Source of the DNA: Escherichia phage MN01
Sequence record: MT129652.1
DNA length: 64,000 nt
Reading direction: 5' to 3' (one strand)
Below are positions 6,144 through 63,976 of the stretch, piece after piece (position 1 is the stretch's first letter; every line of letters begins with the position of its first letter). The notes beneath the pieces were generated by a model. It was not told the DNA's origin. It ran no database searches and was given only the letters and a program-made list of their open reading frames with translations. The translations under genes and the position numbers were made by a program.

Positions 6144-6174
6144 TGTTTACAACGGCAAAGGACTGCCGTATGAT
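6144..6174 (+). promoter_or_regulatory. early sigma70-type promoter upstream of imm
   Basis: GTTTACA -35, about 18 bp, TATGAT -10; hairpin in spacer. Confidence 0.4.
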
Positions 6175-6211
6175 TACTCCATCAACTGATGATTAAATTA
6201 AGGATATTAAA

Positions 6212-6454
6212 ATGGAAACATTAATTGCAGGTACTGTTGTTCTTGGCGCTGGTTCTTTCTTCCTGGCTGCACTGGCATATTTTCTGCCGTGGATTATCGC
6301 ACTACTGCGAGGAACCAAAAGTAATTGCGGAATCTTCTTTGTTAACCTCCTGTTAGGTTGGACAATGGTCGGATGGTTTATTGCATTTATCTGGGCACTC
6401 GTTGCTGAGCGTAAATCAAACGCACAAGTAATTATCATCAAGGAAACCAAATGA
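6212..6454 (+). CDS. imm: superinfection immunity protein (Imm-like membrane protein)
   Basis: 80 aa, two TM helices, NLLLGWTxxGWxxAFIWAL motif; T4 imm position after gene 43. Confidence 0.65.
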   Translation: METLIAGTVVLGAGSFFLAALAYFLPWIIALLRGTKSNCGIFFVNLLLGWTMVGWFIAFIWALVAERKSNAQVIIIKETK

Positions 6455-7215: not shown

Positions 7216-7242
7216 ATTACTCTGAACTGCGAGAAAAATATT

Positions 7243-7397: not shown

Positions 7398-7450
7398 TAT
7401 CCTATCTTAAACCTGTGAGAAAAATATAATGGTGCCTATGGAAAAAATGA

Positions 7451-10387: not shown

Positions 10388-10400
10388 AATATTTTTAAAA

Positions 10401-10435
10401 AAGGGGTGTACAAGCCCCTTGTCTTAGGACATAAT
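10401..10435 (+). promoter_or_regulatory. PeSL-like early promoter cassette (hairpin + promoter)
   Basis: AAGGGG-tgtaca-GCCCC hairpin with TGTACA as -35, 17-bp spacer, CATAAT -10; conserved leader CCGTACTGAGTTAC. Confidence 0.55.
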
Positions 10436-10485
10436 GATTCCGTACTGAGTTACACAATAAACCAACTGTTAAAAAGGAAAACCAT

Positions 10486-10788
10486 ATGTTTAATCAAACC
10501 GATATGAACCGTTACTATTTTGGTCAGTTCGCTCGCCGTGATGAAAACTGTGCTGCTCTTATCGCATCAGGCATTCAAACTGGTAAATTAATAAAGCTCA
10601 AAAGCGATGTTCAACCTTCATCTGTTCGCAGCTCTCTTCGTGAGTATCTGCTTGCAGGCGGTGAAGTATATGTTATCGCTGAACCTTTTGTTAACGTGTG
10701 TGATGATTACACAATTAGTGTGACTGTTATGCACCCAACTACTGGGAAAATTCGTTGTCTGACTATGCACAACTATGAGTTGGCGTAA
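10486..10788 (+). CDS. hypothetical protein
   Basis: 100 aa; preceded by promoter cassette, followed by terminator. Confidence 0.55.
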   Translation: MFNQTDMNRYYFGQFARRDENCAALIASGIQTGKLIKLKSDVQPSSVRSSLREYLLAGGEVYVIAEPFVNVCDDYTISVTVMHPTTGKIRCLTMHNYELA

Positions 10789-10794
10789 GTGAAC

Positions 10795-10817
10795 AAAGGG
10801 GCTTACAGCCCCTTTTT
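10795..10817 (+). terminator. rho-independent terminator
   Basis: AAAGGGGC-ttaca-GCCCCTTTTT; loop doubles as -35 of next promoter. Confidence 0.65.
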
Positions 10818-10830
10818 CTTATGTTATAAT
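10802..10830 (+). promoter_or_regulatory. early promoter cassette
   Basis: CTTACA -35 inside terminator loop, 17 bp, TATAAT; leader CTATCAACTACTGGAG. Confidence 0.55.
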
Positions 10831-10856
10831 GACTCTATCAACTACTGGAGAATAAA

Positions 10857-11174
10857 ATGAAAACCATTGATTGCAAGGCAGAATACAAAGTTTATTATCA
10901 TGGGTCAAGCTCTAATGCTGGAATCCAAAATATGCTTTGTCCTCCTGATGCAACTGGTGTTCTGTCAGAAGTTGGACGTAAGAAAAATTTAGGGCGTGTG
11001 TTTTTTACTGAAGATATTGGTTTGGCGCGTATCTATGCAGGAAGAGCAGCTCGCTCATATGGAGGAGAACCCCGTCTTTATCGTGTGATTGCACCGGTTG
11101 ACGTGGTTTGTTTAAATGATACTAAAGGCGCAACAGTTTATCACGCTGCCTGGGCCTTTTGTGAGGAAATCTAA
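10857..11174 (+). CDS. hypothetical protein
   Basis: 105 aa; SD GGAG; first of three translationally coupled ORFs. Confidence 0.55.
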   Translation: MKTIDCKAEYKVYYHGSSSNAGIQNMLCPPDATGVLSEVGRKKNLGRVFFTEDIGLARIYAGRAARSYGGEPRLYRVIAPVDVVCLNDTKGATVYHAAWAFCEEI

Positions 11175-11378: not shown

Positions 11379-11618
11379 ATGAATATCGCATTAATGAAAC
11401 CTACCCCTAGTTCTTTTTGGAATAAATCTTTTGGTAAGCATAATATGTTTATCCAACGCACCGTAAGCAGCTGGGAACTAGTTCTTTCAGTCGGCCACAA
11501 TGATTATGAACAAGAATACGTAGAGTTCTTCGATTTTCCTGTGAAACCTACCAAGCGTCAGATTCGTCAGACAAAACGCAAATTCCGCAAAATTTATCTG
11601 GAAGATGCATTAAAATAG
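11379..11618 (+). CDS. hypothetical protein
   Basis: 79 aa; basic C-terminus. Confidence 0.45.
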   Translation: MNIALMKPTPSSFWNKSFGKHNMFIQRTVSSWELVLSVGHNDYEQEYVEFFDFPVKPTKRQIRQTKRKFRKIYLEDALK

Positions 11619-11652
11619 TGTACAACAAAGGGATAATGCTGTATATTATCCC
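11619..11652 (+). promoter_or_regulatory. early promoter cassette with inverted repeat over -10
   Basis: TGTACA, 17 bp, TATATT; GGGATAAT...ATTATCCC 8-bp inverted repeat; leader CTATCAACTACTGAGGAG. Confidence 0.45.
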
Positions 11653-11675
11653 TATCAACTACTGAGGAGATTGAA

Positions 11676-11969
11676 ATGAAAAAGTTATTAATCGCGGCAA
11701 TTCTTACCGTAGCATCATGTGGTACAGCTCCAGTTACTGCTGGACTTGATAAAGACCTTTGTGAGTGGTCTATGACTGCCGACCAGACTGATGTTGAACA
11801 TCAGATTTATGCTGATATCATGAACATAACTAAACGTGACCGCCCTGATATGGTTAAAGAAGTATCTGACCAATTGACTTCTGGTGACGTTATGCAGTAT
11901 AACTATGTTCTGTATTGCGATGCTTCATTTGACAATAGCAAAATTGTTCAATGGGTTACAGGTGAATAA
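11676..11969 (+). CDS. secreted/lipoprotein, possible Spackle (Sp)-like periplasmic protein
   Basis: 97 aa, signal peptide MKKLLIAAILTVASC; same size and 41-61 location as T4 sp; identity not verified. Confidence 0.5.
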   Translation: MKKLLIAAILTVASCGTAPVTAGLDKDLCEWSMTADQTDVEHQIYADIMNITKRDRPDMVKEVSDQLTSGDVMQYNYVLYCDASFDNSKIVQWVTGE

Positions 11970-17705: not shown

Positions 17706-18266
17706 ATGAACATCATCAAATCTGATACCGAACCCAACCAGTTAAAATTTAGTGAAATGGAGATAGCTTCATTATTTGAATGCCGCACATCAAAGGTTGA
17801 TAAGACCTTGCATTCAAATGTCAACTCAATCATCAAGTCAAGGTTGTCTATACCCGATACAGTCTTGTGGCGCGGAGTAACCCAGCAAGAGATTGATTTG
17901 TTAGATGAAGCAAAAGAATCAATGCAACCTTTTGAATTTGGACGGGTAACCTCCTTTACAGAAGACTATGGTATTGCCAGGGATTTTGCTGCAATGGAAT
18001 ATGTGACTAGGACTATCGTCAGATTGAATCAGACCAAAGCTTTTTGTTACCATGATGCGATGCGCAAAATCGCGCTTGACGTTCCACTGGAATTCTTCAA
18101 TACAGCTTCTGGTTCCGCCCGGGCAGCTACATTAAGGCGCGAAGAATACATGGACATGATTGATTCTGAGCTTGAATGGTTTGTTCCAGTTGACCAGAAA
18201 TTCGTGGTAGTTGACGCTGGATTTGTTGGTGATTATTATGTTCTTGACTGTGTACAAGAGCAATAA
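17706..18266 (+). CDS. ADP-ribosyltransferase (ModA/ModB family)
   Basis: 186 aa; R (LWRG), S-T-S-like (TSFTED) and ExE (SELEW) ART motifs; mod position next to dda. Confidence 0.7.
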   Translation: MNIIKSDTEPNQLKFSEMEIASLFECRTSKVDKTLHSNVNSIIKSRLSIPDTVLWRGVTQQEIDLLDEAKESMQPFEFGRVTSFTEDYGIARDFAAMEYVTRTIVRLNQTKAFCYHDAMRKIALDVPLEFFNTASGSARAATLRREEYMDMIDSELEWFVPVDQKFVVVDAGFVGDYYVLDCVQEQ

Positions 18267-18279
18267 GACACGTTAAGAT
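18251..18279 (+). promoter_or_regulatory. early promoter cassette
   Basis: TGTACA, 17 bp, TAAGAT; leader CTATCAACTACTGATGAGGA. Confidence 0.45.
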
Positions 18280-18310
18280 GTTCCTATCAACTACTGATGA
18301 GGATAATAAA

Positions 18311-18925
18311 ATGCTGTACACTGATGACGTTTTGAATGGAATTATTGACACTGCCGCTTCTAGCGAGTCTTTTCGTGACCAATGTCAAGCTGAGATTGAT
18401 GCTCTTTATACAGATAATGAGCAATCAGTACTCTGGCAGTGTATGGAAAATAAACCCGACCTGATTCAAGAAGACTTGTCCAGGATTATCCGCAACAATC
18501 TGAATACTGCACCGCCGGCAGCATTGTTCCGTGGTATATCAAAGAAAACCATGGAATACCTGGAAGATTTAAGATATGTTGGTGCAATAATTGAGTTCAA
18601 CCGTGTGATGAGTTTTTCCAGAGACTGGCAGGTTGCAAGAAATTTTGCATCATACAGTTTCTATGGCACAAGGAACATTTTCTGTATAAACAATGCACCA
18701 TATGCGTATAACTATCAGGAAGCAATCTTCAAAATGATTTGCGGTGCTCCTCCCGAAGAGTTCAATGGTGCATATCCAGAAGCAACCAGGAAGTCAAACC
18801 TACACCTGGTTAATGATGAGGATGAGTTTATGTTTCCCGCTGGGACTACGCTTCGCGTAGACTTGATTGAAACTCACCCATTGAATAACCTTTATACTGT
18901 TTGGCATTTGACTGTTTTGAACTAA
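18311..18925 (+). CDS. ADP-ribosyltransferase (ModA/ModB family)
   Basis: 204 aa from SD-preceded ATG; ALFRG, SFSRD, EDEFMFP motifs; paralog of previous gene. Confidence 0.7.
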   Translation: MLYTDDVLNGIIDTAASSESFRDQCQAEIDALYTDNEQSVLWQCMENKPDLIQEDLSRIIRNNLNTAPPAALFRGISKKTMEYLEDLRYVGAIIEFNRVMSFSRDWQVARNFASYSFYGTRNIFCINNAPYAYNYQEAIFKMICGAPPEEFNGAYPEATRKSNLHLVNDEDEFMFPAGTTLRVDLIETHPLNNLYTVWHLTVLN

Positions 18926-18985
18926 CCAAAGACCTTAGAACCATTATACGCAGTAAAAATAAAAGCGTTAAAGGTGAAAAAGTAG

Positions 18986-19013
18986 TGTACATGAAAGATG
19001 AACAGTGTATAAT
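18986..19013 (+). promoter_or_regulatory. early promoter cassette
   Basis: AGTAGTGTACA, about 16 bp, TATAAT; leader CATACTGAGTTACCAAA. Confidence 0.5.
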
Positions 19014-19060
19014 AATTTCATACTGAGTTACCAAATCGTCCGTAAGATGAGAAAAATAAC

Positions 19061-19804
19061 ATGAATATGTCAAAAGAAGAGTTTGAATTAAAAGTTTACA
19101 AACGTCGCGAGCATACCAAAACGTCTGCAAAACGTCGTAACAAGGATTTCAATCTGTCTAGTAAGTATATTGCTAATCTTTTGAAACAAGAATTCTGTGC
19201 GTATTCTGGTGAACGTTTTGATGAAAATTCAACTCAAGATAAAGTTTCCTTTGAACGCTTTAACAATGATATAGGTTATATTGAAGGCAATGTTATCCCT
19301 GTCAAAACTAAGTACAACGGTTTACGTGCTGATTTATCTCTTGATGAACTTAAACGTGCACAGACTCGTTTGGCGGTGCGTATTAATGGCGGTTCTAAGA
19401 TGCCCAATAGTTTTAAAGTAACTCCTGATGGCTATTATAAAATTCGCAAAATTGTTAAAAATATTAAAGATACTGAACGTGGAATCAAGAAGCGTCAAAA
19501 ACATTTAAAAGAGCTTTATAAAAGTGGCGCTAAAGATACCACCCCTTCTGTGATTGCAGTCAAGGCTCGTATACATGGACAAATGGCTTCCATTGGAACT
19601 AGTCAACGTGGACTGAAAATGGTTATGGGTGGTCCTGACTGGCGTCTGAAAATGAAATCATCTGACGCTGAAACGCGTTACGATATGTATGATAAAATTA
19701 TTCAAGGTCTGGAGCGTTTAGATAAGTTGTCATTCATTGACCGTCTTAAACTGAAACGTGGCCTGCCTTTGAACGCGTCAATTTTTAAACTGATTAGAGG
19801 TTAA
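19061..19804 (+). CDS. hypothetical protein (srd position)
   Basis: 247 aa, basic; where T4 has srd (about 250 aa); possible degenerate HNH-like Cys motif; identity unverified. Confidence 0.5.
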   Translation: MNMSKEEFELKVYKRREHTKTSAKRRNKDFNLSSKYIANLLKQEFCAYSGERFDENSTQDKVSFERFNNDIGYIEGNVIPVKTKYNGLRADLSLDELKRAQTRLAVRINGGSKMPNSFKVTPDGYYKIRKIVKNIKDTERGIKKRQKHLKELYKSGAKDTTPSVIAVKARIHGQMASIGTSQRGLKMVMGGPDWRLKMKSSDAETRYDMYDKIIQGLERLDKLSFIDRLKLKRGLPLNASIFKLIRG

Positions 19805-21700: not shown

Positions 21701-22378
21701 GATGCTATTATTGACTTTGAAACTCTGGGAAACGGCTCGAAGGGAGCCGTTATTGACCTGGCTCTGATTACATTCGAATCTGACCCTGCTATTGTGGAAT
21801 CATTCGAAACCCTGGTTAATCGCGGCAAACGTATTAAGTTCAGTCTCGAATACCAAAAAGGTAAGCGGTTGTTCGACACAACAACCATGGGTTGGTGGAA
21901 AAAGCAATCAGCGGAAGCCCGTGTTAACTTGGCTCCTTCTGCACAAGATGTTGATACTCTGACCGGTATCCAACAAGCAATTGATTATCTGAATGGTAAT
22001 GGAATTAACAAATACGAAAGCCTTATGTGGTGTCGTGGAATGTCTTTTGACTTCCCGTTGTTTGTTGACCTTATCCGCGACCTGCAACGCAATGAGGGGA
22101 TTCCTGAGCGCGAATTGAATACCTATGACCTGGAGCCGGTTGTATTCTGGAACCAGCGAGATATCAGGACAGCCATCGAAGCCCTATCACTCGTCCGTAA
22201 GATGTGTGAAACTCCATTACCGAAGGGGACTTTAGATGGATTTGTGGCGCATGATTCGGTGCATGACTGCGCGAAAGATATTTTGATGTTGAAGTATGCC
22301 CAGCGCTATGCTCTTGGTTTAGATGAAGTTCCTTCCGAAGAAGATGCAGACCCATTATCTTTACCGAAAAAACGATAA
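21695..22378 (+). CDS. dexA: exonuclease A DexA (DnaQ-like)
   Basis: 227 aa as T4 DexA; Exo I motif IIDFETLG. Confidence 0.88.
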   Translation: MIDAIIDFETLGNGSKGAVIDLALITFESDPAIVESFETLVNRGKRIKFSLEYQKGKRLFDTTTMGWWKKQSAEARVNLAPSAQDVDTLTGIQQAIDYLNGNGINKYESLMWCRGMSFDFPLFVDLIRDLQRNEGIPERELNTYDLEPVVFWNQRDIRTAIEALSLVRKMCETPLPKGTLDGFVAHDSVHDCAKDILMLKYAQRYALGLDEVPSEEDADPLSLPKKR

Positions 22379-22385
22379 AAAGTAG

Positions 22386-22414
22386 TGTACAAGGCCAATG
22401 GAAAGAGACATAAT
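22386..22414 (+). promoter_or_regulatory. early promoter cassette
   Basis: AAAAGTAGTGTACA, 17 bp, CATAAT; leader CATCAACTACTGATGAGGA. Confidence 0.55.
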
Positions 22415-22445
22415 TATCTCATCAACTACTGATGAGGATAACAAA

Positions 22446-22703
22446 ATGATTACTTCTTTTGAAATTGGCCAACAATATGAAATGTCTGCTCTTCAAGCTG
22501 CTGAAGCAGGTCTGACTAAAGCGTTTGAATGTGCATTTACAAATATTCGTGGTAAAATCTTTACTGTCAATAAAATTGCGGTATATGATAAAGAAACAGA
22601 CATGAACAAAGGCATCTACTTGAACGTGTCAAACGCAAAAGGTCGTCGTGAAATTATGGTTGTACAACCTAACCAACTGGCGATGTTCAATAAGGTTGCA
22701 TAA
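22446..22703 (+). CDS. hypothetical protein
   Basis: 85 aa from SD-preceded ATG; track ORF 22398 reads through the conserved leader. Confidence 0.5.
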   Translation: MITSFEIGQQYEMSALQAAEAGLTKAFECAFTNIRGKIFTVNKIAVYDKETDMNKGIYLNVSNAKGRREIMVVQPNQLAMFNKVA

Positions 22704-23458
22704 TGAAACCAGAATTTATTGACTTTGATGTTGTAAGCATGTATGTTCGCCCAATTAAACCATTAAAACTTGAGAAACAAAATATGACTATTGAAATTAA
22801 CAAAACTTATCAACTGATTGAACCTATTATTCAAAACGCAGCTATGGTTTCTGGGTATAATACTCTGACTGATGCTTTAGGCGAAGGTGAATTTATTGTT
22901 GAAACTTTTGTAAAAAGTAACTGGTTTGATAAAGCATATATTCTACATGCACGTCGCCTTGATACAAATGAAGTAGAAAAAATTACGGTTTATGAAGCTG
23001 AGATTGAACTCTTCAAAGAAGTTGAAGAAACTCCTATCAAAGTTGGTAAAACCTATCAGCTTATTGAAGATGCTAGTCAGTTTGGAAAGACCGTTGCAAT
23101 GCATGCTGGTTGGCGCGTACTGAAAGGTATTTTTGGATTTGCTCCATTTACCGTTAAAACAGTTAAGTACCACAATCACCAAAGCATCTTTGAATTTACT
23201 GCGGTCAATGAATCAGGTGACAATCTTGAAGCTATCCTTTATCCGCGTGAATCTGTACTGCTGGAAGAAGTTAGCGAACTGGGTGACCCTATTGACTTGC
23301 TGTGTAAACCAGTTCAAATCAAACGCCCATTTAACAGTTCCATTTGTGGTTGGGTAACAGACCAGTGGATTGAAGAGGGTGTTGAACTCCTGAACGTTGT
23401 TCATGCTGGTGAATTTACTGTTGTACCACGTTCCATGGTTGTTGAAATTTTTAATTAA
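22703..23458 (+). CDS. hypothetical protein (paralog family A)
   Basis: 251 aa; C-terminal TDQWIEEGVELLNVVHAGEFTVVP shared with 23538..24098. Confidence 0.55.
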   Translation: MKPEFIDFDVVSMYVRPIKPLKLEKQNMTIEINKTYQLIEPIIQNAAMVSGYNTLTDALGEGEFIVETFVKSNWFDKAYILHARRLDTNEVEKITVYEAEIELFKEVEETPIKVGKTYQLIEDASQFGKTVAMHAGWRVLKGIFGFAPFTVKTVKYHNHQSIFEFTAVNESGDNLEAILYPRESVLLEEVSELGDPIDLLCKPVQIKRPFNSSICGWVTDQWIEEGVELLNVVHAGEFTVVPRSMVVEIFN

Positions 23459-23466
23459 ATTTAAAG

Positions 23467-23500
23467 TGTACAAACTCTTGGGGTCGGAGTATAATGACCC
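23467..23500 (+). promoter_or_regulatory. early promoter cassette with inverted repeat bracketing -10
   Basis: TGTACA, 17 bp, TATAAT; TGGGGTC...GACCCCA flanks the -10. Confidence 0.55.
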
Positions 23501-23537
23501 CACTGGAGAATAAACTTATTAACCAAGAGAGAAAATT

Positions 23538-24098
23538 ATGAAAGTTGAAGCTGGCGAAATCGTTCGCGTATCCAAAAAATCTCGTTCAAGAGCTGCTGGA
23601 CGTTTTGTTGAGGTTGTCAGTATTCGTGCTGATATTTTTGTTGACCATCCTGATAATGAAGTAAAGGTGCGTATCATTCCCAAAAATGGTCAGACTGAAA
23701 CTCAATTCGCTTATGTACGTGCTAAATTCCTGGAATCAACTGCTATCACTGCCACCAACCTCCCTGTGGTTGAAGAAGTTGAATCCCATGATGGATATGT
23801 GTGCGAAAGCAATGATATTCGTGGCGTAATTGCTCAAGACGTTGAAACCATTGACCAGTCTCATGTTGGGGTTGATTTTAAATGGAAATTGGGCAAAGGT
23901 GTCTTTTTTGTTTCACCTAAACCGTTTGAATATGTTGACGAACCTTTTGGTACTTATGAAACCACTAGCATGTCTGGTTACATCACAGACCAGTGGGTTG
24001 AAGAAGGCGTTAAGCTCTATAACATCGTGTTCCTTGGAACCTTTAAGGTGGTTCCTGAAAGCTTTATCGTTGAGTATGCTGATATTCATCGTGCCTAA
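23538..24098 (+). CDS. hypothetical protein (paralog family A)
   Basis: 186 aa; C-terminal TDQWVEEGVKLYNIVFLGTFKVVP; own promoter cassette. Confidence 0.55.
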   Translation: MKVEAGEIVRVSKKSRSRAAGRFVEVVSIRADIFVDHPDNEVKVRIIPKNGQTETQFAYVRAKFLESTAITATNLPVVEEVESHDGYVCESNDIRGVIAQDVETIDQSHVGVDFKWKLGKGVFFVSPKPFEYVDEPFGTYETTSMSGYITDQWVEEGVKLYNIVFLGTFKVVPESFIVEYADIHRA

Positions 24099-24146
24099 AT
24101 TATAAAAATGATAGGGTAATTTTGCCCTATCAATGAGGAGAATATT

Positions 24147-24371
24147 ATGTTTAATGAAGATTGTGTAACCACTTCCCTGACCGCTGAAGAGTTTTGGGAT
24201 ACTGCTGAAAGTGATAAAGTGATTGTGAAGAAAAACATCAATGAATTTCTTTGCACCACTGATATCATTTATGTGTATGCAGACAAAGACGCAGAACTAC
24301 CTAGCTATGCACTGTTCCGCGAAGAATCAGAAAATGGTACAGATTTTTGGAAGGAGATTTATAATGTCTAA
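24147..24371 (+). CDS. hypothetical protein
   Basis: 74 aa; SD GAGGAG. Confidence 0.45.
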   Translation: MFNEDCVTTSLTAEEFWDTAESDKVIVKKNINEFLCTTDIIYVYADKDAELPSYALFREESENGTDFWKEIYNV

Positions 24372-27687: not shown

Positions 27688-27714
27688 AAAAGGACCTTCG
27701 GGTCCTTTTTTATT
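27688..27714 (+). terminator. rho-independent terminator
   Basis: AAAAGGACC-ttcg-GGTCCTTTTTT. Confidence 0.7.
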
Positions 27715-27715
27715 A

Positions 27716-27744
27716 TGTACAAGCCACAAAAATTACGTTAAGAT
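27716..27744 (+). promoter_or_regulatory. early promoter cassette
   Basis: TGTACA right after terminator, 17 bp, TAAGAT. Confidence 0.45.
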
Positions 27745-27761
27745 ATCCTTGAGGTGAACAT

Positions 27762-28061
27762 ATGATTATGTCTGACGGAAGTTTAGTTAATCTGCAGAAT
27801 GTTGCACGTTGTATTATGGAAGCTGGTCTGAGGAAGGTACAGGAGCTCCCAGATAGCGACAGGAAGCGAAGTTACTTGTTGGCTGTAAGAGCATCAGCCA
27901 TGAGCATTAAGGCTGGCCAGAAGGTTCCTGAGGAGCGAATTGAAGCACTCCTTGCATTGATATACCATGGCCAAGAACATAAAGCTACCATGCGTAGTAT
28001 GAGAAAAATATTGCAGGAGATTGGAAATGACAAACTTCAAAGTGAATATGGAACTGTTTGA
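27762..28061 (+). CDS. hypothetical protein
   Basis: 99 aa; SD GAGGTG; promoter cassette upstream. Confidence 0.5.
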   Translation: MIMSDGSLVNLQNVARCIMEAGLRKVQELPDSDRKRSYLLAVRASAMSIKAGQKVPEERIEALLALIYHGQEHKATMRSMRKILQEIGNDKLQSEYGTV

Positions 28062-33034: not shown

Positions 33035-33310
33035 ATGGAACAAGTTACTACTCAAAACATCAAACAAATTCTTATTCAAGCACTCAAAAACAACAACATC
33101 AATTTTCCAACCCATGAAATTTTTGATGTGGTATTCAACGAAGTCCAGGGTCAAGTTGCATATTATGACGTTATCATTTATCTTTCAGAATTTGAAGTCT
33201 ACCACCTGACTGAAATCGCTTTCTATCTCTATCGTGGGACTGCAGATTTTACCGGGGTCGTGAATGCAGTTGGTGCATATAAAGAAGTTAAAGAACAAAT
33301 GCACAATTAA
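33035..33310 (+). CDS. hypothetical protein
   Basis: 91 aa from ATG just after a perfect 11-bp hairpin covering the SD. Confidence 0.5.
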   Translation: MEQVTTQNIKQILIQALKNNNINFPTHEIFDVVFNEVQGQVAYYDVIIYLSEFEVYHLTEIAFYLYRGTADFTGVVNAVGAYKEVKEQMHN

Positions 33311-33321
33311 TTAAAAAGTAG

Positions 33322-33350
33322 TGTACATCAGTATGGAGTCTATGTATAAT
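33322..33350 (+). promoter_or_regulatory. early promoter cassette
   Basis: AAAAGTAGTGTACA, 17 bp, TATAAT; leader CCATACTGAGTTACCAAA. Confidence 0.55.
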
Positions 33351-33386
33351 GATTCCATACTGAGTTACCAAATACTGGAGAATAAA

Positions 33387-33542
33387 ATGAAACCTGCTCA
33401 ATATGCAATGACTTTATACCTTGAAGTTAATGGCGATATTACTGAATTTTTTAAATTAATGCAACAGCGCGGAAAAAGTTTTGCAGTTACTGAGCGTCAA
33501 TTTTACGCGTGTCGCAAAAATACATACAATCGTTATGCATGA
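33387..33542 (+). CDS. small hypothetical protein (51 aa)
   Basis: SD GGAG; promoter cassette upstream; track ORF 33321 trimmed. Confidence 0.4.
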   Translation: MKPAQYAMTLYLEVNGDITEFFKLMQQRGKSFAVTERQFYACRKNTYNRYA

Positions 33543-33813: not shown

Positions 33814-33904
33814 GTAGCAAAACTTGGTGCCTTATCTGGATATTGTGTATCCCAGTAATTTGCGTTTGTTTTAGTTTATTATTAATGAAACTTGCATAAA
33901 AGAG

Positions 33905-33955
33905 TATACATCTCCAGTGGTTGTAGTATAATGAACCTATCAACTACTGGAGATG
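33905..33955 (+). promoter_or_regulatory. early promoter cassette with 10-bp inverted repeat
   Basis: TATACA, about 16 bp, TATAAT; CATCTCCAGT...ACTGGAGATG brackets -10 and leader. Confidence 0.4.
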
Positions 33956-33958
33956 ATT

Positions 33959-34075
33959 ATGAAAAAGTTACTTAAAGCCATTTGGAACATGTTTGTACTG
34001 TTTGTTGTCCTGAGCATTTTCCCAATTGTTTTTATGATTGACCATGTACGTGTTTACTTTAACTATTTCTTTTGA
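33959..34075 (+). CDS. small membrane peptide (38 aa)
   Basis: SD GGAG; hydrophobic; promoter cassette upstream; not in ORF track. Confidence 0.3.
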   Translation: MKKLLKAIWNMFVLFVVLSIFPIVFMIDHVRVYFNYFF

Positions 34076-34449: not shown

Positions 34450-34691
34450 AACTTTTTAAAGACATTGCAGTTGGTGAAAAATTTGTCCTGGGTAATGGTC
34501 AACAACTGATTCGCATTTCGCCTTTGATGGATAACAGCGAGCGCCCTGTGCGCACTGAAAACTGTTTGGATTATCCTTTTTATCAGAAGCGTTTTGCAAT
34601 TGAAAATAATACTGAGTGCTTCACAGTTGATGAACTGATGGAATCATCAGAAGAAGTTGACTTGTGGGATGGCGCAGTTGATGTAGAATAG
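34446..34691 (+). CDS. hypothetical protein
   Basis: 81 aa; ATGA coupling. Confidence 0.45.
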   Translation: MKLFKDIAVGEKFVLGNGQQLIRISPLMDNSERPVRTENCLDYPFYQKRFAIENNTECFTVDELMESSEEVDLWDGAVDVE

Positions 34692-34720
34692 TGTACAAAC
34701 TTTTGGGAGCAGAGTATAAT
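34692..34720 (+). promoter_or_regulatory. early promoter cassette
   Basis: TAGTGTACA, 17 bp, TATAAT; TGGGA...TCCCA inverted repeat. Confidence 0.55.
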
Positions 34721-34759
34721 GTTCCCAGTGGATAATAAAATTTAGCTGAGGAAATCATT

Positions 34760-35104
34760 ATGTCTAAAGTATTTTTTGGTAATCGCAACATTATGTTCTT
34801 TAAACAGATTAGCGTATCAGAAGCATTTGATTTAAGTTATTCAGGCGGTACAAAAGCTGTTAACCTTAAAAATTTGATGTCTGCAGAATTTGCATTCTAT
34901 CAGGACCCTGAAACTGGTTTCTACAAATTTATTAAGTTCCGCATGACTATGGACCGCGATTATCGTGATGTTTATTATACAAGTTATGAAAGTGTTATCA
35001 ATGCAATTCGTGAAGCTTATGGATTGGATTCGTTGTCGCTTGACCGCCTGTATAATGCAAGCCTTTACACCAGTGGATTTATTTTAGAACAGCTTCAAAA
35101 ATAG
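34760..35104 (+). CDS. hypothetical protein
   Basis: 114 aa; promoter cassette upstream. Confidence 0.5.
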   Translation: MSKVFFGNRNIMFFKQISVSEAFDLSYSGGTKAVNLKNLMSAEFAFYQDPETGFYKFIKFRMTMDRDYRDVYYTSYESVINAIREAYGLDSLSLDRLYNASLYTSGFILEQLQK

Positions 35105-35138
35105 TGTACAAACTCTTGGGGTCTGAGTATAATGACCC
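35105..35138 (+). promoter_or_regulatory. early promoter cassette
   Basis: TAGTGTACA, 17 bp, TATAAT; TGGGGTC...GACCCCA nearly identical to the 23467 cassette. Confidence 0.55.
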
Positions 35139-35177
35139 CACTGGAGCACAAAACTTTAACTTACTGAGGAAATTAAT

Positions 35178-35627
35178 ATGAATACTTACATGACCCGTCG
35201 TGACGTACTGAATGCTGGCGCTACTACTGTTGCTTATATCCATAATGGTAATTATGTTGCAGGTCGCCCGACTAAAGAAGCTATCACTCAACCAGGTTTT
35301 TATTTCGTGGTTAAAGGTGAAGGTGAATCACGTATTGTTGCCGCACGTTTTTATGTTGGTAACCAACGTTCACAACAAGGGTTTGACACTGTATTAAGTC
35401 ACATCCGCAAACAGCGTTCGCAACTGTCTCGCACAATGGCGAACAATGGGGTTATCTATGAAGTCCTGTTTGTCCCAGTTTCTAAAATGAAACCTCTGAC
35501 AACTGGTTATGGTAAAGGTCAAATTGCGATGGCGTTCACTCGCTCACATAGTTCTGATTGCCAGACCCTTTCAGAAATGAATCGCATGCTTGCTGATAAC
35601 TTTAAATTCATTCTGCAGAGTTATTAA
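35178..35627 (+). CDS. ndd: nucleoid disruption protein Ndd-like
   Basis: 149 aa (T4 Ndd 151); [29 protein letters not shown] resemble recalled T4 Ndd; between rIIB and 52. Confidence 0.55.
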
Positions 35628-37390: not shown

Positions 37391-37485
37391 GTTTTGGAGT
37401 TGAGTTTGCATTGCTTTGTATTTTCGCGGCAATCGCAGGTGTGATTGTTGGTATGTTTATTGGTAATAAGATAGATAAAGACTAG
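37387..37485 (+). CDS. small membrane peptide (32 aa)
   Basis: Overlaps gene 52 stop; hydrophobic; followed by terminator. Confidence 0.3.
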   Translation: MSFGVEFALLCIFAAIAGVIVGMFIGNKIDKD

Positions 37486-37507
37486 GACCCTTCGGGGTCC
37501 TTTTTTA
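37484..37507 (+). terminator. rho-independent terminator after gene 52 region
   Basis: AGGACCC-ttcg-GGGTCCT then TTTTTT. Confidence 0.7.
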
Positions 37508-37531
37508 TTTTAAAATATTTTAAAAAAGTAG

Positions 37532-37560
37532 TGTACATGACCCTTGACCTGATGCATAAT
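37532..37560 (+). promoter_or_regulatory. early promoter cassette
   Basis: AAAAGTAGTGTACA, 17 bp, CATAAT; leader CCATACTGAGTTACACAA. Confidence 0.55.
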
Positions 37561-37609
37561 GATTCCATACTGAGTTACACAATGAATCACAAAAACTTTG
37601 GAGAATAAA

Positions 37610-37825
37610 ATGTTTACTGCACAACAGAATGAAGGTCAAGAATACATTAACGCTAAATTCAAATCCAATAAAGAAGCTTGCTATTACTACTTTGACATGT
37701 TCAAACTGGCGAATTCTAAAGAAGAACGTAAACAAGCGATTGATGTTATTGTTTCCACTTCCCATATGAAACGTACTGTGGTACAATCATATGCATCAAA
37801 TTACATGAAATCTATTAAGGGATAA
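37610..37825 (+). CDS. hypothetical protein
   Basis: 71 aa from SD-preceded ATG; promoter cassette upstream. Confidence 0.5.
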   Translation: MFTAQQNEGQEYINAKFKSNKEACYYYFDMFKLANSKEERKQAIDVIVSTSHMKRTVVQSYASNYMKSIKG

Positions 37826-39810: not shown

Positions 39811-39975
39811 ATGAGTCATAACTTAGAGAACACCATTACTGGCCAGCGTACACGCGAACAGTCTTGCTTTGAGGAATTCCTTGGAGCAGATTTTAAGTTC
39901 CAGGAACCAGTTGAACAGATGTATCAGGAATATGTTGTACAGATGGAAAATCATGTGTACAACCCAGAGGAATAA
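39811..39975 (+). CDS. small hypothetical protein (54 aa)
   Basis: SD AAGGGG; acidic; not in ORF track. Confidence 0.3.
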   Translation: MSHNLENTITGQRTREQSCFEEFLGADFKFQEPVEQMYQEYVVQMENHVYNPEE

Positions 39976-40033
39976 TAGTATAATATCCTTACTGAATAAT
40001 TGAATGTCTTATTGAATACTTGAGTAAATTAAA

Positions 40034-40309
40034 ATGACTAAATTTGAAATCGTTTCTGAAATTGTTACTGTAACTTCAATTTTGATTAAAACCGACCGGG
40101 AAGATATTACGATGAAGCGTGATGTATTTATCGCGTTTTTGAATGAGTTGGGATTGAGAAATGAGAATGGGAATGAGTTAAACAATGTATCGTTTAACAA
40201 GTTGTTTAAAAGTTTATCTGAAGATGAAATTGAACAAATTATTGAACAATTTAACGAAGGATTCGAAGATATACACCGTTATCTTATGATGTATACCTCC
40301 GGATTCTAA
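40034..40309 (+). CDS. asiA: anti-sigma70 factor AsiA
   Basis: 91 aa; IxTVxSILIK and FNEGFEDxxRYLxMYT match recalled T4 AsiA. Confidence 0.85.
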   Translation: MTKFEIVSEIVTVTSILIKTDREDITMKRDVFIAFLNELGLRNENGNELNNVSFNKLFKSLSEDEIEQIIEQFNEGFEDIHRYLMMYTSGF

Positions 40310-52549: not shown

Positions 52550-53214
52550 TTACGATTCGCATGCCTCCAAATAACAACCGATACATAAATGGTAAATCAG
52601 TATATCAACTGTACTTATCCATCAAACAGCATTTTTCGGGTCGTTATGATATTATCAAATATAACTGGACCATGCGAATCTCCGATAGTGCTTATCAAAA
52701 ACGTCGCGATAAGTATTTTTTCGAAAAGCTTAGCGATAAGTACACTCTCAAAGAATTAACATTAATATTCATGTCAAACCTGGTCGCGAACCAGGATGCA
52801 TGGATAGGTGATATAAGTGATGCTGATGCTCTGATATTTTATCGAGAATACATTGGCAGACTTAAAAGAATTAAACAAGTATACGAAGATGATATAAAGA
52901 ATATCTATTACTTCAGTAAGAAAGTCGAAGTCAAATCGCTTCAAGAGATTTTCGAGTATAATACTAAAGTAAACACAAGTTATATTTTCAAACTTCTCCA
53001 ATCGAATGTTATCTCATTTGAAACGTTTTGTTTGCTTGATTCATTTTTAGGTATTATAAATAAACATGATGAACAGACCAACGACTTGGTTTGGGAAAAG
53101 TATTCAACCAAACTAAATGCCTATAAGAAAATCTTAAATATCGATTCTCTTGAAGCTCGTAAATTGTTCATCGAGACCGTTAAAAACTGTCAAATAACGC
53201 TTCAAGCACTTTGA
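52546..53214 (+). CDS. 59: helicase loader gp59
   Basis: 222 aa; long identities to recalled T4 gp59 (DIIKYNW, LVANQDAWIGDISDADAL, YYFSKKVEV). Confidence 0.9.
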   Translation: MITIRMPPNNNRYINGKSVYQLYLSIKQHFSGRYDIIKYNWTMRISDSAYQKRRDKYFFEKLSDKYTLKELTLIFMSNLVANQDAWIGDISDADALIFYREYIGRLKRIKQVYEDDIKNIYYFSKKVEVKSLQEIFEYNTKVNTSYIFKLLQSNVISFETFCLLDSFLGIINKHDEQTNDLVWEKYSTKLNAYKKILNIDSLEARKLFIETVKNCQITLQAL

Positions 53215-54186: not shown

Positions 54187-54191
54187 TATAA

Positions 54192-54215
54192 GGGGACCTT
54201 CGGGTCCCTTTTTTA
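54192..54215 (+). terminator. rho-independent terminator after gene 32
   Basis: GGGGACC-ttcg-GGTCCC then TTTTTT. Confidence 0.7.
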
Positions 54216-54229
54216 TTTTCAAAAAGTAG

Positions 54230-54258
54230 TGTACAAGTCCTTTGAGCTAAGGCATAAT
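54230..54258 (+). promoter_or_regulatory. early promoter cassette
   Basis: AAAAGTAGTGTACA, 17 bp, CATAAT; leader CCATCAACTACTGA. Confidence 0.55.
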
Positions 54259-54296
54259 GATTCCATCAACTACTGATAACAACTGAGGAAATAAAA

Positions 54297-54659
54297 ATGG
54301 AAATCGGCAAAAAATATGAGTTCAATCCACATCGTATTAAATCTTTCATTGATATTAGTTCATCGAATGCCAGTATGGTTGACATCATCCAAGAAAATGG
54401 CGGTTGGTTTGAAGTTAAATCAATATCAAGTGCAGACGGATATGATTATGTAACCGAAATCATTTGTGCTAATGGTGCAATCTATAATGATGATGGCATG
54501 GGTGATGATTATTTTGAACTTAGTGAAGAAGAGTTTTATTGCTTCCGCGAATACTCTAATTATGCAAAAACACCTTCAGGGGCGGTTTCTATTAATTGTG
54601 TTGTGGATGCTAATAACGTTGACCAAATCATTGAACTTTTGCAAAAAGCTTTCAAATAG
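54297..54659 (+). CDS. hypothetical protein (paralog family B)
   Basis: 120 aa; paralog of 55010..55372 (DDYFELSEEEF, C-terminal LLQKAFK). Confidence 0.55.
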   Translation: MEIGKKYEFNPHRIKSFIDISSSNASMVDIIQENGGWFEVKSISSADGYDYVTEIICANGAIYNDDGMGDDYFELSEEEFYCFREYSNYAKTPSGAVSINCVVDANNVDQIIELLQKAFK

Positions 54660-54662
54660 CAG

Positions 54663-54697
54663 TTTACAACGGGTCTATGGTTGAGATACTATAGACC
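54663..54697 (+). promoter_or_regulatory. early promoter cassette with inverted repeat
   Basis: GTTTACA -35; GGTCTAT...ATAGACC over -10 region; leader CTATCAACTACATGAGGAA. Confidence 0.4.
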
Positions 54698-54721
54698 TAT
54701 CAACTACATGAGGAAAATAAA

Positions 54722-54949
54722 ATGGCTAAGGTTAATATTGATATCGTTGATTTTGAATACACTTACGAAGTTATTCGTAATCGGTATCCTTCTTTGTGTA
54801 TGACTTACATTAAAGATACTGAAGTCTTTGGTATTCAAATTGAAGTCCAAGGTCCTCTTGAAGATATTACCCGCTTTATGCAAAATGAATATTGTGACGG
54901 TATGTATCCAGAAGACACTAAATTTTATATGAATTTGATTGAAGCTTAA
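54722..54949 (+). CDS. hypothetical protein
   Basis: 75 aa; promoter cassette upstream. Confidence 0.5.
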
Positions 54950-55373: not shown

Positions 55374-55628
55374 ATGACTAAAGATGATTTCCTGGATGCA
55401 GTGGAAAAAGCCAGTGAACAATTTGAAGTGATGGGTGTGCGTTTGCATAAAGACAGAAATTATGGTCTGGATGTTCAAACCTACTCATTATGGCTTGTGG
55501 GTGAGCACAGTCTTGCAACCAATCTTGTTATGGGTGTAGATACATATCCTTTATTAGTTAAGTTCAGAAGTATGGAAAAAGCCAACAAGGAAATGATTAA
55601 ACTTGGCAAATGGCTTGATAAAATTTAA
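55374..55628 (+). CDS. hypothetical protein
   Basis: 84 aa from ATG after previous stop. Confidence 0.45.
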   Translation: MTKDDFLDAVEKASEQFEVMGVRLHKDRNYGLDVQTYSLWLVGEHSLATNLVMGVDTYPLLVKFRSMEKANKEMIKLGKWLDKI

Positions 55629-55635
55629 AAAGTAG

Positions 55636-55664
55636 TGTACAACCAAATGGGGCTATGACATAAT
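55636..55664 (+). promoter_or_regulatory. early promoter cassette
   Basis: AAAAGTAGTGTACA, 17 bp, CATAAT; leader CCCATACTGAGTTAACAA. Confidence 0.55.
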
Positions 55665-55705
55665 GGTCCCATACTGAGTTAACAACTAAAACACTGGAGA
55701 ATAAA

Positions 55706-55945
55706 ATGAAATTACAACGTGAGAGCATCAAAGATTCAGAAGTTAAAGGCAAATGGTACTTCACAATCCAAGGTAACAATCCAGAAGCTCTGGAAAAAGC
55801 TGAACAAGCTTTGTGTGAAATGGGTTGGAAAGATGAGTGTGATGGTTGCCCTCTTTATGAAGATGGTAGCTCATCCGGTTTCTGGATTTACCACTCTGAC
55901 GTTGACCAATTTAAAGCTGACTGGAAAGTTGCCAAGAAAGCGTGA
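55706..55945 (+). CDS. hypothetical protein
   Basis: 79 aa; SD GGAG; promoter cassette upstream. Confidence 0.5.
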   Translation: MKLQRESIKDSEVKGKWYFTIQGNNPEALEKAEQALCEMGWKDECDGCPLYEDGSSSGFWIYHSDVDQFKADWKVAKKA

Positions 55946-62538: not shown

Positions 62539-63671
62539 TTGAATTATATGATAACTTAATGAAGCTTTGCGCCGAATCTGATAAAGGTAAGTTTTTCTAT
62601 ACGGATTTTGTTTCTCCATTTGAAACTAAGTTCCGCATCTTTAGCTATAACTATGCTTCCTATAGTGATTGGCTCCTTGATGATGCGCTGGAGTGCCGTG
62701 GCATTATGTTTGAAATGGGTGACAATGGTCCAGTTCGCATTGCTGCTCGTCCTATGGAAAAATTCTTTAATCTGGGTGAGAATCCAATGACCATGGACCT
62801 TAACCTTGATGAGGTTGTCCTGGTTACTGCAAAAGCTGATGGTAGCTTGGTTTCTACTTATATGGACCAGACTAATATCGCCTTTAAATCTAAAGGGTCA
62901 ATCAAAAGTTCCCAAGCTGCTGAATCCTTGCAGGTGTTTAAACAAGAGCATCGCAGTGCATTCAGGGCTCGCGTAACTGAAATTACTGAAGCTGGTTATA
63001 CATGCAATATGGAATATGTTGCACCGACCAACCGCATTGTTTTGCCTTACCAGGAACGTGACCTGATTTTGCTGAACGTTCGTCATAATGAAACGGGTGA
63101 ATATATCCCCTATCAGGAACTGTTCAAAGATGCTGCACTCCGTCCTTTCCTGGTTGAAGCATATGACCCGGCAACCATTGAGAATGTTCGCGGTATGAAA
63201 GAGATTGAAGGCTTCGTCTATGAGATGGCTAACGGTCAGAAGTTCAAGATGAAAACAGAATGGTATTGTGCTCTGCATCATACTAAAGACTCCATTAATA
63301 ATAATGAGCGACTGTTTGAAGTTGTTGTTGCTGGCGGGGCAGATGATGTTATTGCCATGTTTACTGGCGATACTTATGCTCGTGAAAAAGTTACTGCCTT
63401 TACTGTAACGCATCTGGATTATCTGTCCAATACACTGGGATTGTTGCTTGATGCTCAGAAACAATTGGCAGGAAAAGACCGACGCGAGTTTGCGATTAAA
63501 GGTCAAGAGTTATGCAAACCATACCCGGGATTGTTCTCCGTATTAATGAACACCTATCAACGCCCACAGGAAACTGAACAAACGATTGCTCAAATCAATA
63601 AAGTTTTCCTTAAAAATCATAAACTTTACATTCCGTTGGACTACCAAGCGGAAGTAATCCTTCCTGAATAA
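62535..63671 (+). CDS. rnlA: RNA ligase 1 (gp63, tail-fibre attachment)
   Basis: 378 aa; RIFSYNYASYSDWLL, ECRGIMFEM and KxDG adenylation motif (AKADGSL) match recalled T4 Rnl1. Confidence 0.88.
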   Translation: MIELYDNLMKLCAESDKGKFFYTDFVSPFETKFRIFSYNYASYSDWLLDDALECRGIMFEMGDNGPVRIAARPMEKFFNLGENPMTMDLNLDEVVLVTAKADGSLVSTYMDQTNIAFKSKGSIKSSQAAESLQVFKQEHRSAFRARVTEITEAGYTCNMEYVAPTNRIVLPYQERDLILLNVRHNETGEYIPYQELFKDAALRPFLVEAYDPATIENVRGMKEIEGFVYEMANGQKFKMKTEWYCALHHTKDSINNNERLFEVVVAGGADDVIAMFTGDTYAREKVTAFTVTHLDYLSNTLGLLLDAQKQLAGKDRREFAIKGQELCKPYPGLFSVLMNTYQRPQETEQTIAQINKVFLKNHKLYIPLDYQAEVILPE

Positions 63672-63676
63672 TAAAA

Positions 63677-63700
63677 AAGGGGTGTACAAGCCCCTTCTTT
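63677..63700 (+). terminator. hairpin/weak terminator after rnlA, fused to promoter -35
   Basis: AAAAAGGGG-tgtacaa-GCCCCTTCTTT. Confidence 0.45.
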
Positions 63701-63711
63701 CTATACATAAT
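63683..63711 (+). promoter_or_regulatory. PeSL-like early promoter cassette
   Basis: Hairpin-embedded TGTACA, 17 bp, CATAAT; leader CCATCAACTACTGATGAGGA. Confidence 0.5.
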
Positions 63712-63742
63712 GGTTCCATCAACTACTGATGAGGACCAAAAC

Positions 63743-63976
63743 ATGTTAAACTTAATTACAAATGACAGAGTTACACAGGCATATGGTGACAGAAATGATG
63801 GAATCTATGTCTACAAGGGAGACCGCCGGATTGGTTTCATTACTGACCTGAAGGCCAAATTGTTAAAAGAATTGAAAGCTCAAACAAGTGATTCTGGGTT
63901 TAGAGCAAGAGCCAAAAAGAAAGATGAGCGCCTGGGTGCCAACTCTTTTGGTCCCCGGGGTTACAACCGCTACTAA
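63743..63976 (+). CDS. hypothetical protein
   Basis: 77 aa from SD-preceded ATG; track ORF 63710 reads through the leader. Confidence 0.45.
   Translation: MLNLITNDRVTQAYGDRNDGIYVYKGDRRIGFITDLKAKLLKELKAQTSDSGFRARAKKKDERLGANSFGPRGYNRY

Follow-up and report, generated by a model that had tools for sequence, protein, structure and literature searches.

The intergenic stretch upstream of motA in Escherichia phage MN01 (MT129652.1) holds a short element that resembles a promoter joined to a conserved leader and that recurs before unrelated genes, which raises the question of what these repeats are and whether their leaders and hairpins have functions of their own. In the window, that is, the whole stretch of 64,000 nt analysed, the element occupies 37517..37612 on the + strand. 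A UUCG terminator (37485..37506, +; GGACCC-UUCG-GGGTCC then T6, read directly) and an A/T tract precede the -35 GTGTACA (37531-37537), a 17-nt spacer and the -10 CATAAT (37555-37560). The predicted +1 is at 37567, leader A ATACTGAGTTAC covers 37567-37578, and a RegB-type Shine-Dalgarno sequence (SD), GGAGAATAAAA, lies at 37600-37610, with the ATG at 37610. It is followed by a 71-aa ORF and, after that, by motA (37828). Our results indicate that this element and its copies are very probably the early promoters of a T4-like phage, dependent on sigma-70 and built as cassettes of the promoter-early stem-loop (PeSL) type.

The 4-kb stretch around the 37,520 site has 92-97% identity to genomes of Gaprivervirus, from Escherichia and Shigella phages, among them SP18, VR7/20/25/26 and the TH series. 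Judged by sequence, the MN01 window is that of a Gaprivervirus, an SP18/VR7-like relative of T4. In the SP18 annotation, rIIB-denB-ndd-52-motA-arn-asiA is followed by the tail-fibre genes, on the opposite strand, and these by rnh-33-59-32-frd-td-nrdA, so that the + strand of the window corresponds to the early-transcribed strand of a T4-type genome. A tRNA scan of the window found none, and an Rfam scan of the whole window at gathering thresholds gave no match, which places the leaders outside all known RNA families. The genes led by cassettes are those for imm, spackle, a ModA-like ADP-ribosylase, Srd, MotB, Ndd, AsiA and a host-transcription inhibitor, together with ORFans. The genes for imm, spackle, the ModA-like protein, Srd, MotB, Ndd, MotA and AsiA form the classical immediate-early set of T4.

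Results

Census and anatomy of the cassettes

Cassettes were detected with a regular expression for the -35 and -10, with an nhmmer profile, and by reading each coordinate given in the preliminary description. The window contains 19, all of them (19/19) on the + strand and 0 on the - strand. At least 15 sites had been claimed before; all 15 were recovered by these means, and to them were added 6145, 33904 and 39955, from the regular expression or the profile, and 54662, from direct reading. The same profile run on the complete genome of TH15 found 33/33 cassettes on one strand. The string AAAAGTAGTGTACA, allowing ≤2 mismatches, has 10 matches in the window, all on the + strand, against 0.67 expected (0/100 shuffles). 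Cassettes fill gaps of about 70-110 bp between early genes, and 16/19 are within blocks of small ORFs (10.4-25 kb, 31-36 kb, 37.4-40.3 kb and 54-56 kb). A 93-bp query with leader A matched only 35 Gaprivervirus records, at 7-14 BLAST places per genome, and the T4 motA cassette is found at about 8 places per Tequatrovirus genome. A scan of IMG/VR for AGTGTACA-N17-YATAATG gave mostly single chance matches among the matches listed.

The usual order of parts is an A-tract, the -35 GTGTACA, a spacer of 16-18 nt, a (C/T)ATAAT-like -10, six bases, the leader, the SD and the ATG. The upstream AT-rich tracts, of the form AAAA(A)GTA/TAG, contain the stop codon of the upstream gene, and at 11618, 34691, 35104 and 54662 a TAG stop is directly 5' of the -35. 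The 6-nt discriminator is C-rich, the predicted start is A, and an SD with a start codon ends all 19/19 cassettes, the leaders being G-poor and 11-44 nt long. The uniform 17-bp spacer and (C/T)ATAAT first described hold for most sites; the exceptions are spacers of 16 nt at 18985 and 33904 and of 18 nt at 54662, and five divergent -10 hexamers, namely TAAGAT at 18250 and 27715, TATATT at 11618, TATGAT at 6145 and TACTAT at 54662. The poor hexamers at 27715 and 18250 are a weak point of the promoter reading.

Composite promoters of this kind are known from other T4-like phages. Arbiol et al. 2010 (PMC2839356) defined the PeSL as an AT-rich tract with the upstream stop codon, sigma-70-like -35 and -10 boxes, a stem-loop, an SD and an ATG, the stem-loop having five placements, of which those between the boxes or overlapping the -10 are commonest. 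Comeau et al. 2014 (PMC4122927) carried the concept to T4/PST and KVP40/nt-1. The MN01 cassettes resemble the PeSLs of RB49/phi1, PST/T4 and nt-1/KVP40 in their composite layout with a 17-nt spacer, in the placements of the stem-loop and in their G4/C4 stems; like those PeSLs, they occur in many copies that group among the small ORFs of plastic regions, where an ORF between two cassettes is present or absent among close relatives. They differ in the -35, which is GTGTACA in MN01, TTGACA in RB49 and TTTACW in T4/PST, and in leader A, which belongs to this genus only. That the repeats are early-promoter cassettes of the PeSL type, as had been suggested, agrees with their anatomy, with the orthologues of T4 early genes downstream and with the alignments to T4 sites.

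Leader families and their T4 counterparts

Two conserved leader families had been proposed, and both exist. Leader A (CATACTGAGTTA) has 4 exact copies and 1 with a single mismatch, and leader B (ATCAACTACTG) has 7 exact copies, against 0.99 expected at ≤1 mismatch; one or the other is present in 14/19 cassettes (A in 5, B in 9, including the variants at 6145 and 54662). The division into two is nevertheless incomplete, since a third family, C (GACCCC-ACTGGAG / GTTCCC-AGTGGAT), occurs at 23466, 35104 and 34691, and the leaders at 27715 and 39955 are outside A, B and C. The three families have ACTG(A/G) in common.

In five T4-like phages, the T4-type early promoter consists of an A-tract at -44..-40, GTTTAC at -36..-31, a TAnnnT -10 and a C-rich -3..-1 (Nolan et al. 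2006, PMC1524935). The MN01 cassettes share with it an A-rich, UP-like tract, the G at -36, the 17-nt spacer, the TAnnnT -10, the C-rich -3..-1 and the A start. In contrast, their -35 is a genus-specific GTGTACA where T4 has GTTTACA (T to G at -34, the sole systematic departure), their -10 is mostly TATAAT or CATAAT where T4 often has TACTAT, and there is no consistent TGn. The MN01 -35 TGTACA matches the sigma-70 TTGACA at 4/6 positions. T4-style copies, with GTTTACA..TACTAT or TATGAT, are found beside them in MN01 at 54662 and 6145.

A scan of 79 kb of T4 for GTTTAC-N17-TAnnAT found sites upstream of motA, motB, imm.1, sp and frd.2 that have leader B or C, and even the stem, in common with the window. 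Upstream of motA and imm.1 and in the ndd region, T4 carries TACTAT-acaa-CTATCAACTACTGATAC, in which the leader CTATCAACTACTGA stands 6 nt past the -10 as in MN01. The T4 sequence upstream of motB, GTTTACAAACTCTTGGGACCAGAGTATAATGGTCCCGTGGAG, is the counterpart of the window at 23466; ACTACTGAGGAGATT is common to T4 upstream of sp and to the window at 11618; and the -10 stem is found upstream of T4 motB and frd.2, with the same genes downstream. Because they stand at matching T4 positions, leaders B and C can be regarded as ancestral features of T-even early promoters, and leader B, being also 3' of T4 early promoters, is not special to MN01. Leader A is confined to Gaprivervirus. The T4 middle promoters have, in place of a -35, a MotA box, (a/t)(a/t)TGCTT(t/c)a, centred at -30 (PMC2988021). 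No cassette contains TGCTT, and the conserved element is GTGTACA at -36..-30, so that the cassettes are not middle promoters.

The leader starts exactly 6 nt past the -10 in 19/19 cassettes, and its distance to the ATG varies from 11 to 44 nt. The fixed and the variable distance indicate together that the leader is anchored to the transcription start and not to the ribosome site. Among orthologues in eight relatives, variable columns make up 2% of +1..+12, 3% of the -35, 4% of the -10, 10% of the spacer and 23% of the upstream sequence. Folded from the predicted +1, the leaders are unstructured (z up to +1.8; +1.5 for the 37531 cassette), and for three A leaders 95-100% of shuffles fold better. 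The first 12 transcribed bases are thus most likely part of the promoter, and would serve in start-site choice, in promoter escape and in giving an unstructured 5' end. The 3' part of the leader is best read, from its sequence, as a RegB-sensitive ribosome site. The idea that the leaders may carry a shared regulatory signal is plausible, in that they are conserved like the hexamers and many end in a RegB/S1 consensus. An 8-codon mini-ORF at 37583-37609 was considered as a leader peptide and rejected, its ATG being CTG in TH54 and TH57 and the ORF being absent from the other A leaders.

It could also be that +1..+12 (ATCAACTACTG, ATACTGAGTTAC or ACTGGAG) is a dedicated cis-signal, distinct from promoter function and read by a phage or host factor, either as the element on which the abrupt shut-off of early promoters would act or as a 5'-end mark for the decay or processing of early mRNA, both of these being candidate roles. 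We consider this quite improbable. Orthologues indeed keep the leader as well as they keep the -35 and -10, T4 and Gaprivervirus have it in common, and its position is fixed relative to the start site, not to the ribosome-binding site; moreover, the early shut-off of T4, which is independent of ModA and AsiA, is not understood (PMC2988021, PMC3014915). No structure is predicted for it, however, and Rfam was empty. We know of no factor that recognises the +1..+12 leader. In addition, three families and two unmatched cassettes share the same promoter core, which fits a loose constraint on composition or escape better than a specific binding site. Strong promoters of T5 and T7 are said, from work of Kammerer and colleagues in 1986, to have conserved initial transcribed regions as well, and these reportedly act in promoter clearance.

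A full-text literature search for the leader strings returned only unrelated primer matches, and Hinton 2010 (PMC2988021), on the T4 early promoters, mentions just "additional regions of consensus". A start-anchored leader common to T4, and the covarying stems at the -10 described below, are less well documented than the PeSL class.

Stem-loops and their placement

About 14 of the 19 cassettes carry a stem-loop; in some it precedes the promoter or covers the -35, in others it lies within the spacer or surrounds the -10. UUCG-loop terminators lie upstream of three cassettes, at 27688, 37485 and ~54190. Apart from the cassette before motA, these belong to a weak cassette at 27688..27764 (+; terminator 27688-27709, ATGTACA, 17 nt, TAAGAT, 11-nt leader, nhmmer E = 3e-4) and to the one at 54190..54299 (+), where CATAAT and leader B follow the terminator. 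G4/C4 hairpins with the -35 as loop are present in three more, at 10399, 10795 and 63675. In the cassette at 10392..10488 (+), the -35 is within the hairpin AAAAGGGG-TGTACAAG-CCCCTT, and CATAAT and leader A lead a 100-aa ORFan that is missing in TH40, TH57 and TH15; at 10787..10859 (+), the -35 is held by a terminator hairpin, AAAGGGGC-TTACA-GCCCCTTT with a T-run, and is followed by TATAAT, leader B and GGAGAATAAAA; and at 63668..63745 (+), the hairpin AAAAGGGG..CCCCTT again contains the -35, with CATAAT and leader B then ACTGATGAGG before a gene whose PHROGs annotation is inhibitor of host transcription. For these six sites, the earlier statement that several copies are fused to a GC hairpin or terminator is correct. 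A single cassette has its stem inside the spacer (CGGCA..TGCCG, z = -3.4): that at 6145..6214 (+), after gp43, with GTTTACA, 17 nt, TATGAT and the leader B variant ATCAACTGATGA before an imm-like gene, at a position that corresponds to the T4 early-promoter-like site 27080.

The preliminary description had not noted that in eight further cassettes, namely 11618, 23466, 33321, 33904, 34691, 35104, 54662 and 55635, a stem brackets or overlaps the -10; the folding z-scores of seven of these stems range from -2.6 to -5.8. At 11604..11678 (+), the positional orthologue of T4 site 20109, the stem AGGGATAATG/TATTATCCCT overlaps the -10 TATATT (z = -2.6) ahead of leader B and the spackle gene. The three family C cassettes follow one plan: at 23452..23540 (+), GGGGTC/GACCCC brackets TATAAT (z = -3.6) and the leader ACTGGAGAATAAA precedes a MotB-like gene, this site being orthologous to that upstream of motB in T4 (-35 at T4 7215); at 34677..34762 (+), the stem around TATAAT is GGGAGC/GTTCCC (z = -4.1), and the upstream TAG is just 5' of the -35; and at 35090..35180 (+), GGGGTC/GACCCC (z = -3.1) stands before ndd. 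Longer stems are found at 33307..33389 (+), where 12-13 bp of CAGTATGGAGTC/GATTCCATACTG surround the -10 (z = -5.5) of a cassette with leader A and GGAGAATAAAA, and at 33890..33961 (+), a leader B cassette with GTATACA and a 16-nt spacer, whose spacer-leader stem of about 16 bp takes in the SD GGAG (z = -5.8). The T4-style cassette at 54657..54724 (+; GTTTACA, 18 nt, TACTAT, leader CTATCAACTAC) has GGTCTAT/ATAGACC overlapping the -10, and that at 55621..55708 (+; CATAAT, leader A, GGAGAATAAAA) has ATGGGGCT/GGTCCCAT around it (z = -3.5).

Weaker stems inside the leader, downstream of the -10, occur in three cassettes, at 18250, 22385 and 63682. The first of these lies at 18236..18313 (+; GTGTACA, TAAGAT, leader B then ACTGATGAGG) before the gene of a ModA-like ADP-ribosylase, and the second at 22371..22448 (+), where CATAAT is followed by leader B with the hairpin CTCATC-aactact-GATGAG and an 85-aa ORF. 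No convincing stem was found at 18985 and 39955. The former cassette (18971..19063, +; 16-nt spacer, TATAAT, leader A, Srd-like gene) has only a weak one of 5 bp, and an orthologue of it shows a compensated stem, ATGAA/TTCAT versus ATGGAT/ATCCAT; the latter (39941..40036, +) has GTGTACA, TATAAT and the leader ACTGAATAATTG before asiA. A degraded half-cassette at 24108..24149 (+) retains a stem, GATAGGG/CCCTATC, then CTATCAATGAGGAG and an ATG, with no recognisable hexamers. Cassettes without a -10 stem mostly have an upstream terminator or a -35-loop hairpin, and there seems to be a rule of a single stem-loop per cassette. Most of the stems that bracket the -10 have no U-tract 3' of them, which makes classical intrinsic termination doubtful for that class.

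Similarity between cassettes might reflect nothing other than the recent copying of a mobile promoter module, whether duplicated or spread by gene conversion, the leaders and stems being functionless. Paralogues do share long stretches that include the spacers, which are otherwise under no constraint as a rule, as seen between 23466 and 35104, which differ at 1/43 nt; 10406 and 37531 have in common a 35-nt stretch from the -10 into the leader, and the same 60-nt leader is found at two loci. The stems argue otherwise. Across 29 paralogous cassettes, pairing is stronger between a spacer and the leader of its own cassette than between a spacer and other leaders (-9.5 vs -6.25 kcal/mol; permutation p < 5e-5), and the pairing is bimodal, with a strong stem in about half of the 29. 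In family C, with the T4 motB copy included, 98.7% of cells are paired, a value equalled by 0/500 shuffles, and two pairs of the stem vary, as AU/GC/GU and CG/UA/GC/GU. Compensatory changes in the -10-bracketing stem thus extend out to T4, and further compensations are found among orthologues. Leader B, leader C and the motB stem are kept at orthologous sites in T4, which is of another genus, and among orthologues the leader is less variable than the spacer. For these reasons copying as the sole explanation is most implausible. The G-U pairs indicate that it is in the sense-strand RNA, as made by read-through from upstream, that the -10 stem is important.

Candidate RegB/S1 sites and ribosome binding

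The strong consensus for cleavage by RegB/S1 is GG*AGRAYARAA (Durand et al., cited in PMC3014915). The window contains 4 matches to GGAGRAYARAA, against 0.29 expected, and all are in cassette leaders, which fold as unstructured. In these four leaders GGAGAATAAAA(TG) agrees with the consensus exactly, and regB is annotated in SP18 and hence present in the genus. The four GGAGAATAAAA leaders, each with an unpaired GGAG followed by RAYARAA, are therefore candidate RegB/S1 target sites by sequence. SDs of the GGAG type precede 6/18 cassette-led genes versus 6/79 others (p = 0.008); unlike the RegB/S1 targets, 13/19 MN01 cassettes have SDs of the GAGG type.

Given these sites, the -10 stems might act mainly on translation and on access of RegB, by hiding the GGAG or SD in read-through transcripts; we regard this as unlikely, and the same holds for its corollary, by analogy with T4 e, soc, 49 and I-TevI, that only promoter-proximal transcripts would be translated and cleaved. 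The entire leader of 33904, with its SD GGAG, is base-paired in the stem, and the outer stem of 23466 and 35104 sets CUCU against the GGAG at +4..+7. There are also precedents for both halves of the proposal, in that structure protects GGAG from RegB and that a hairpin with the promoter inside it sequesters the TIR of T4 gene e (PMC3014915). The MN01 stems resemble those of e, soc, 49 and I-TevI in that the promoter is within the hairpin, so that long transcripts fold and promoter-proximal ones do not. In the T4 genes, however, the promoters are late or middle and the ribosome-binding site is always sequestered, whereas in MN01 the promoters are of the early class, and a buried SD is clear at one site only. 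At 11618, 33321, 34691, 55635 and 54662 the SD is free, 12-30 nt past the stem, and the mechanism is accordingly not general. Sequestration of the SD as the general role of the -10 stems was thus rejected, as it holds at 33904 only.

Gene-content breakpoints

A role for the cassettes as recombination linkers had also been put forward, to be checked against gene-content breakpoints in relatives. The window was aligned with eight relatives, and indels or replacements of ≥40 bp were counted, tail-fibre genes being left out. Breakpoints fall at 8/17 cassette junctions and at 28/70 other gene junctions (odds ratio 1.3, p = 0.6), so that no excess is seen at cassettes; restricted to the plastic regions, the count is 8/16 against 22/47. 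This differs from the PeSLs of Arbiol et al., in which 10/14 differences were next to a PeSL (PMC2839356).

Individual events linked to cassettes do occur, at 10437/10795, 54299, 33389, 34681 and 55626. The ORF at 10486-10788 is, with its promoter, flanked by two G4/C4-hairpin promoters; TH40, TH57 and TH15 lack it, their junction lying within the AAAAGGGG stem, and at the same locus TH41 and TH44 have a different, T4-style module and TH54 yet another. The 54229 promoter runs at +1 into leader B in the window; in TH15 it is followed instead, from +1, by leader A and another gene. A leader A of 60 nt recurs at two loci, before genes that are unrelated. Other events include an indel breakpoint at the ATG of the 33307..33389 cassette, an indel by which TH40 differs at 34677..34762, a deletion junction of SP18 at 54724, the end of the 54657..54724 cassette, and a deletion of TH54 that ends at 55626, inside the 55621..55708 cassette. 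Most single-ORF indels are bounded by SD-ATG repeats of 13-17 bp, such as TGAGGATAATATTATGA. The linker idea is only partly supported, with clean cassette-to-cassette events for it and the lack of breakpoint enrichment and the SD-ATG repeats at most indels against it. By the refuting condition given in the preliminary description, the linker role is weak in this genus; the aligned sequences indicate that cassettes are able to mediate exchange but are not preferred sites.

Discussion

Cassettes of the PeSL type have already been described in T4-like phages, and the MN01 set, though real, is for the most part ordinary. For these cassettes the DNA sequence serves to predict where transcripts start, that they are early and that the stems act as terminators. 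If the repeats are early promoters, RNA that reads through from upstream would fold the stem-loop, and the folded stem may act, as proposed for the PeSLs, as a terminator or attenuator, in which case each module would be transcriptionally insulated. Transcripts from the cassette's own promoter would be without the 5' arm of the stem, leaving an open leader and efficient loading of ribosomes. Their first ~12 bases would contribute to start-site choice, promoter escape and an unstructured 5' end. Where GGAGAATAAAA serves as the SD, the leader would expose a consensus RegB/S1 cleavage site, of the kind at which, some minutes into a T4 infection, early mRNAs are cut and so inactivated. Translation control by the stem does not seem to be general, given that the SD is clearly buried only at 33904. 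Since cassettes have 40-90 bp of similarity, they may occasionally offer homology patches for the insertion, deletion or swap of ORFs, a use that in this genus would be no more frequent than at ordinary gene junctions.

There is a slim chance that the start-anchored 12-nt leader is a specific cis-signal, a handle for shut-off or a 5'-end tag for decay, and not a generic initial transcribed region. If that were true, the leader variants A, B and C would set different kinetics for different sets of genes. Taken together, the early-promoter reading provides a map of promoters and transcription units for the early region of Gaprivervirus and extends the PeSL architecture to another T-even genus, and the idea of cassettes as recombination linkers is tempered by the SD-ATG repeats that join most ORF-sized indels. 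The start-anchored leader and the covarying -10 stems are cheap targets for mutagenesis, which may bear on the fate of early mRNA and on the unexplained early shut-off of these phages.

Results and Discussion

The small single ORFs that are variably present among the relatives have as their edges direct repeats of 6-17 bp, placed at either the SD-ATG or a TAATG stop-start overlap. Repeat-bounded indels of this kind, each involving a small ORF, were found at window positions 33389/33543, 34089/34230, 38445/38622, 54724/54996 and 57741/57923. The most frequent type of junction is the translation-initiation region, and not the promoter. Larger insertions are also present in the relatives. SP18 and TH15 carry 620-680 bp in the gp59-gp32 gap (53184-53217), where the window has no insertion, and in the SP18 annotation this insertion is the homing endonuclease segG. 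TH15 has further insertions of 700-860 bp close to 680, 4933-5051 (within gp43) and 60893 of the window, which may be mobile endonuclease genes too.

The genus-specific -35 core of all the cassettes, TGTACA, is a perfect palindrome, and the TAG located 5' of it often terminates the reading frame of the upstream gene, as at 11618, 34691, 35104 and 54662. The leader of the cassette at 37517-37612 contains a mini-ORF of 8 codons (37583-37609; ATGAATCACAAAAACTTTGGAGAATAA), whose 3' end lies in the SD of the main gene. This mini-ORF is probably not functional, given that its ATG is replaced by CTG in TH54 and TH57. At 24108-24149, a GATAGGG/CCCTATC stem is followed by CTATCAATGAGGAG and then by ATG, with the promoter hexamers absent. 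This element looks like a decayed half-cassette, and resembles the '1/2 PeSL' kind named by Comeau et al.

Variation was also observed inside genes. In all seven relatives covering the region, the inner 298 bp (19355-19654) of the Srd-like gene (19061-19804) give way to a divergent segment of 304 bp, a replacement that points to a mosaic srd allele. Compared with four relatives, the MotB-like ORF of the window has an extra 45-52 bp at 23786-23836, and a repeat of 11-18 bp flanks this insertion.

In T4, 42 and beta-gt are located between gene 43 and uvsX, whereas the window harbours only imm-like and small ORFs in the equivalent region (6145-8629). The junction 3' of gp41 (10388-10860) is a hot spot, with four distinct configurations across eight genomes, and TH54 is among the relatives that vary. 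In TH41 and TH44, this junction is occupied by a T4-style module, composed of a terminator, GGTTTACA..TACTAT and leader B, along with a different ORF; such a make-up suggests that the module was imported from a Tequatrovirus-like phage.
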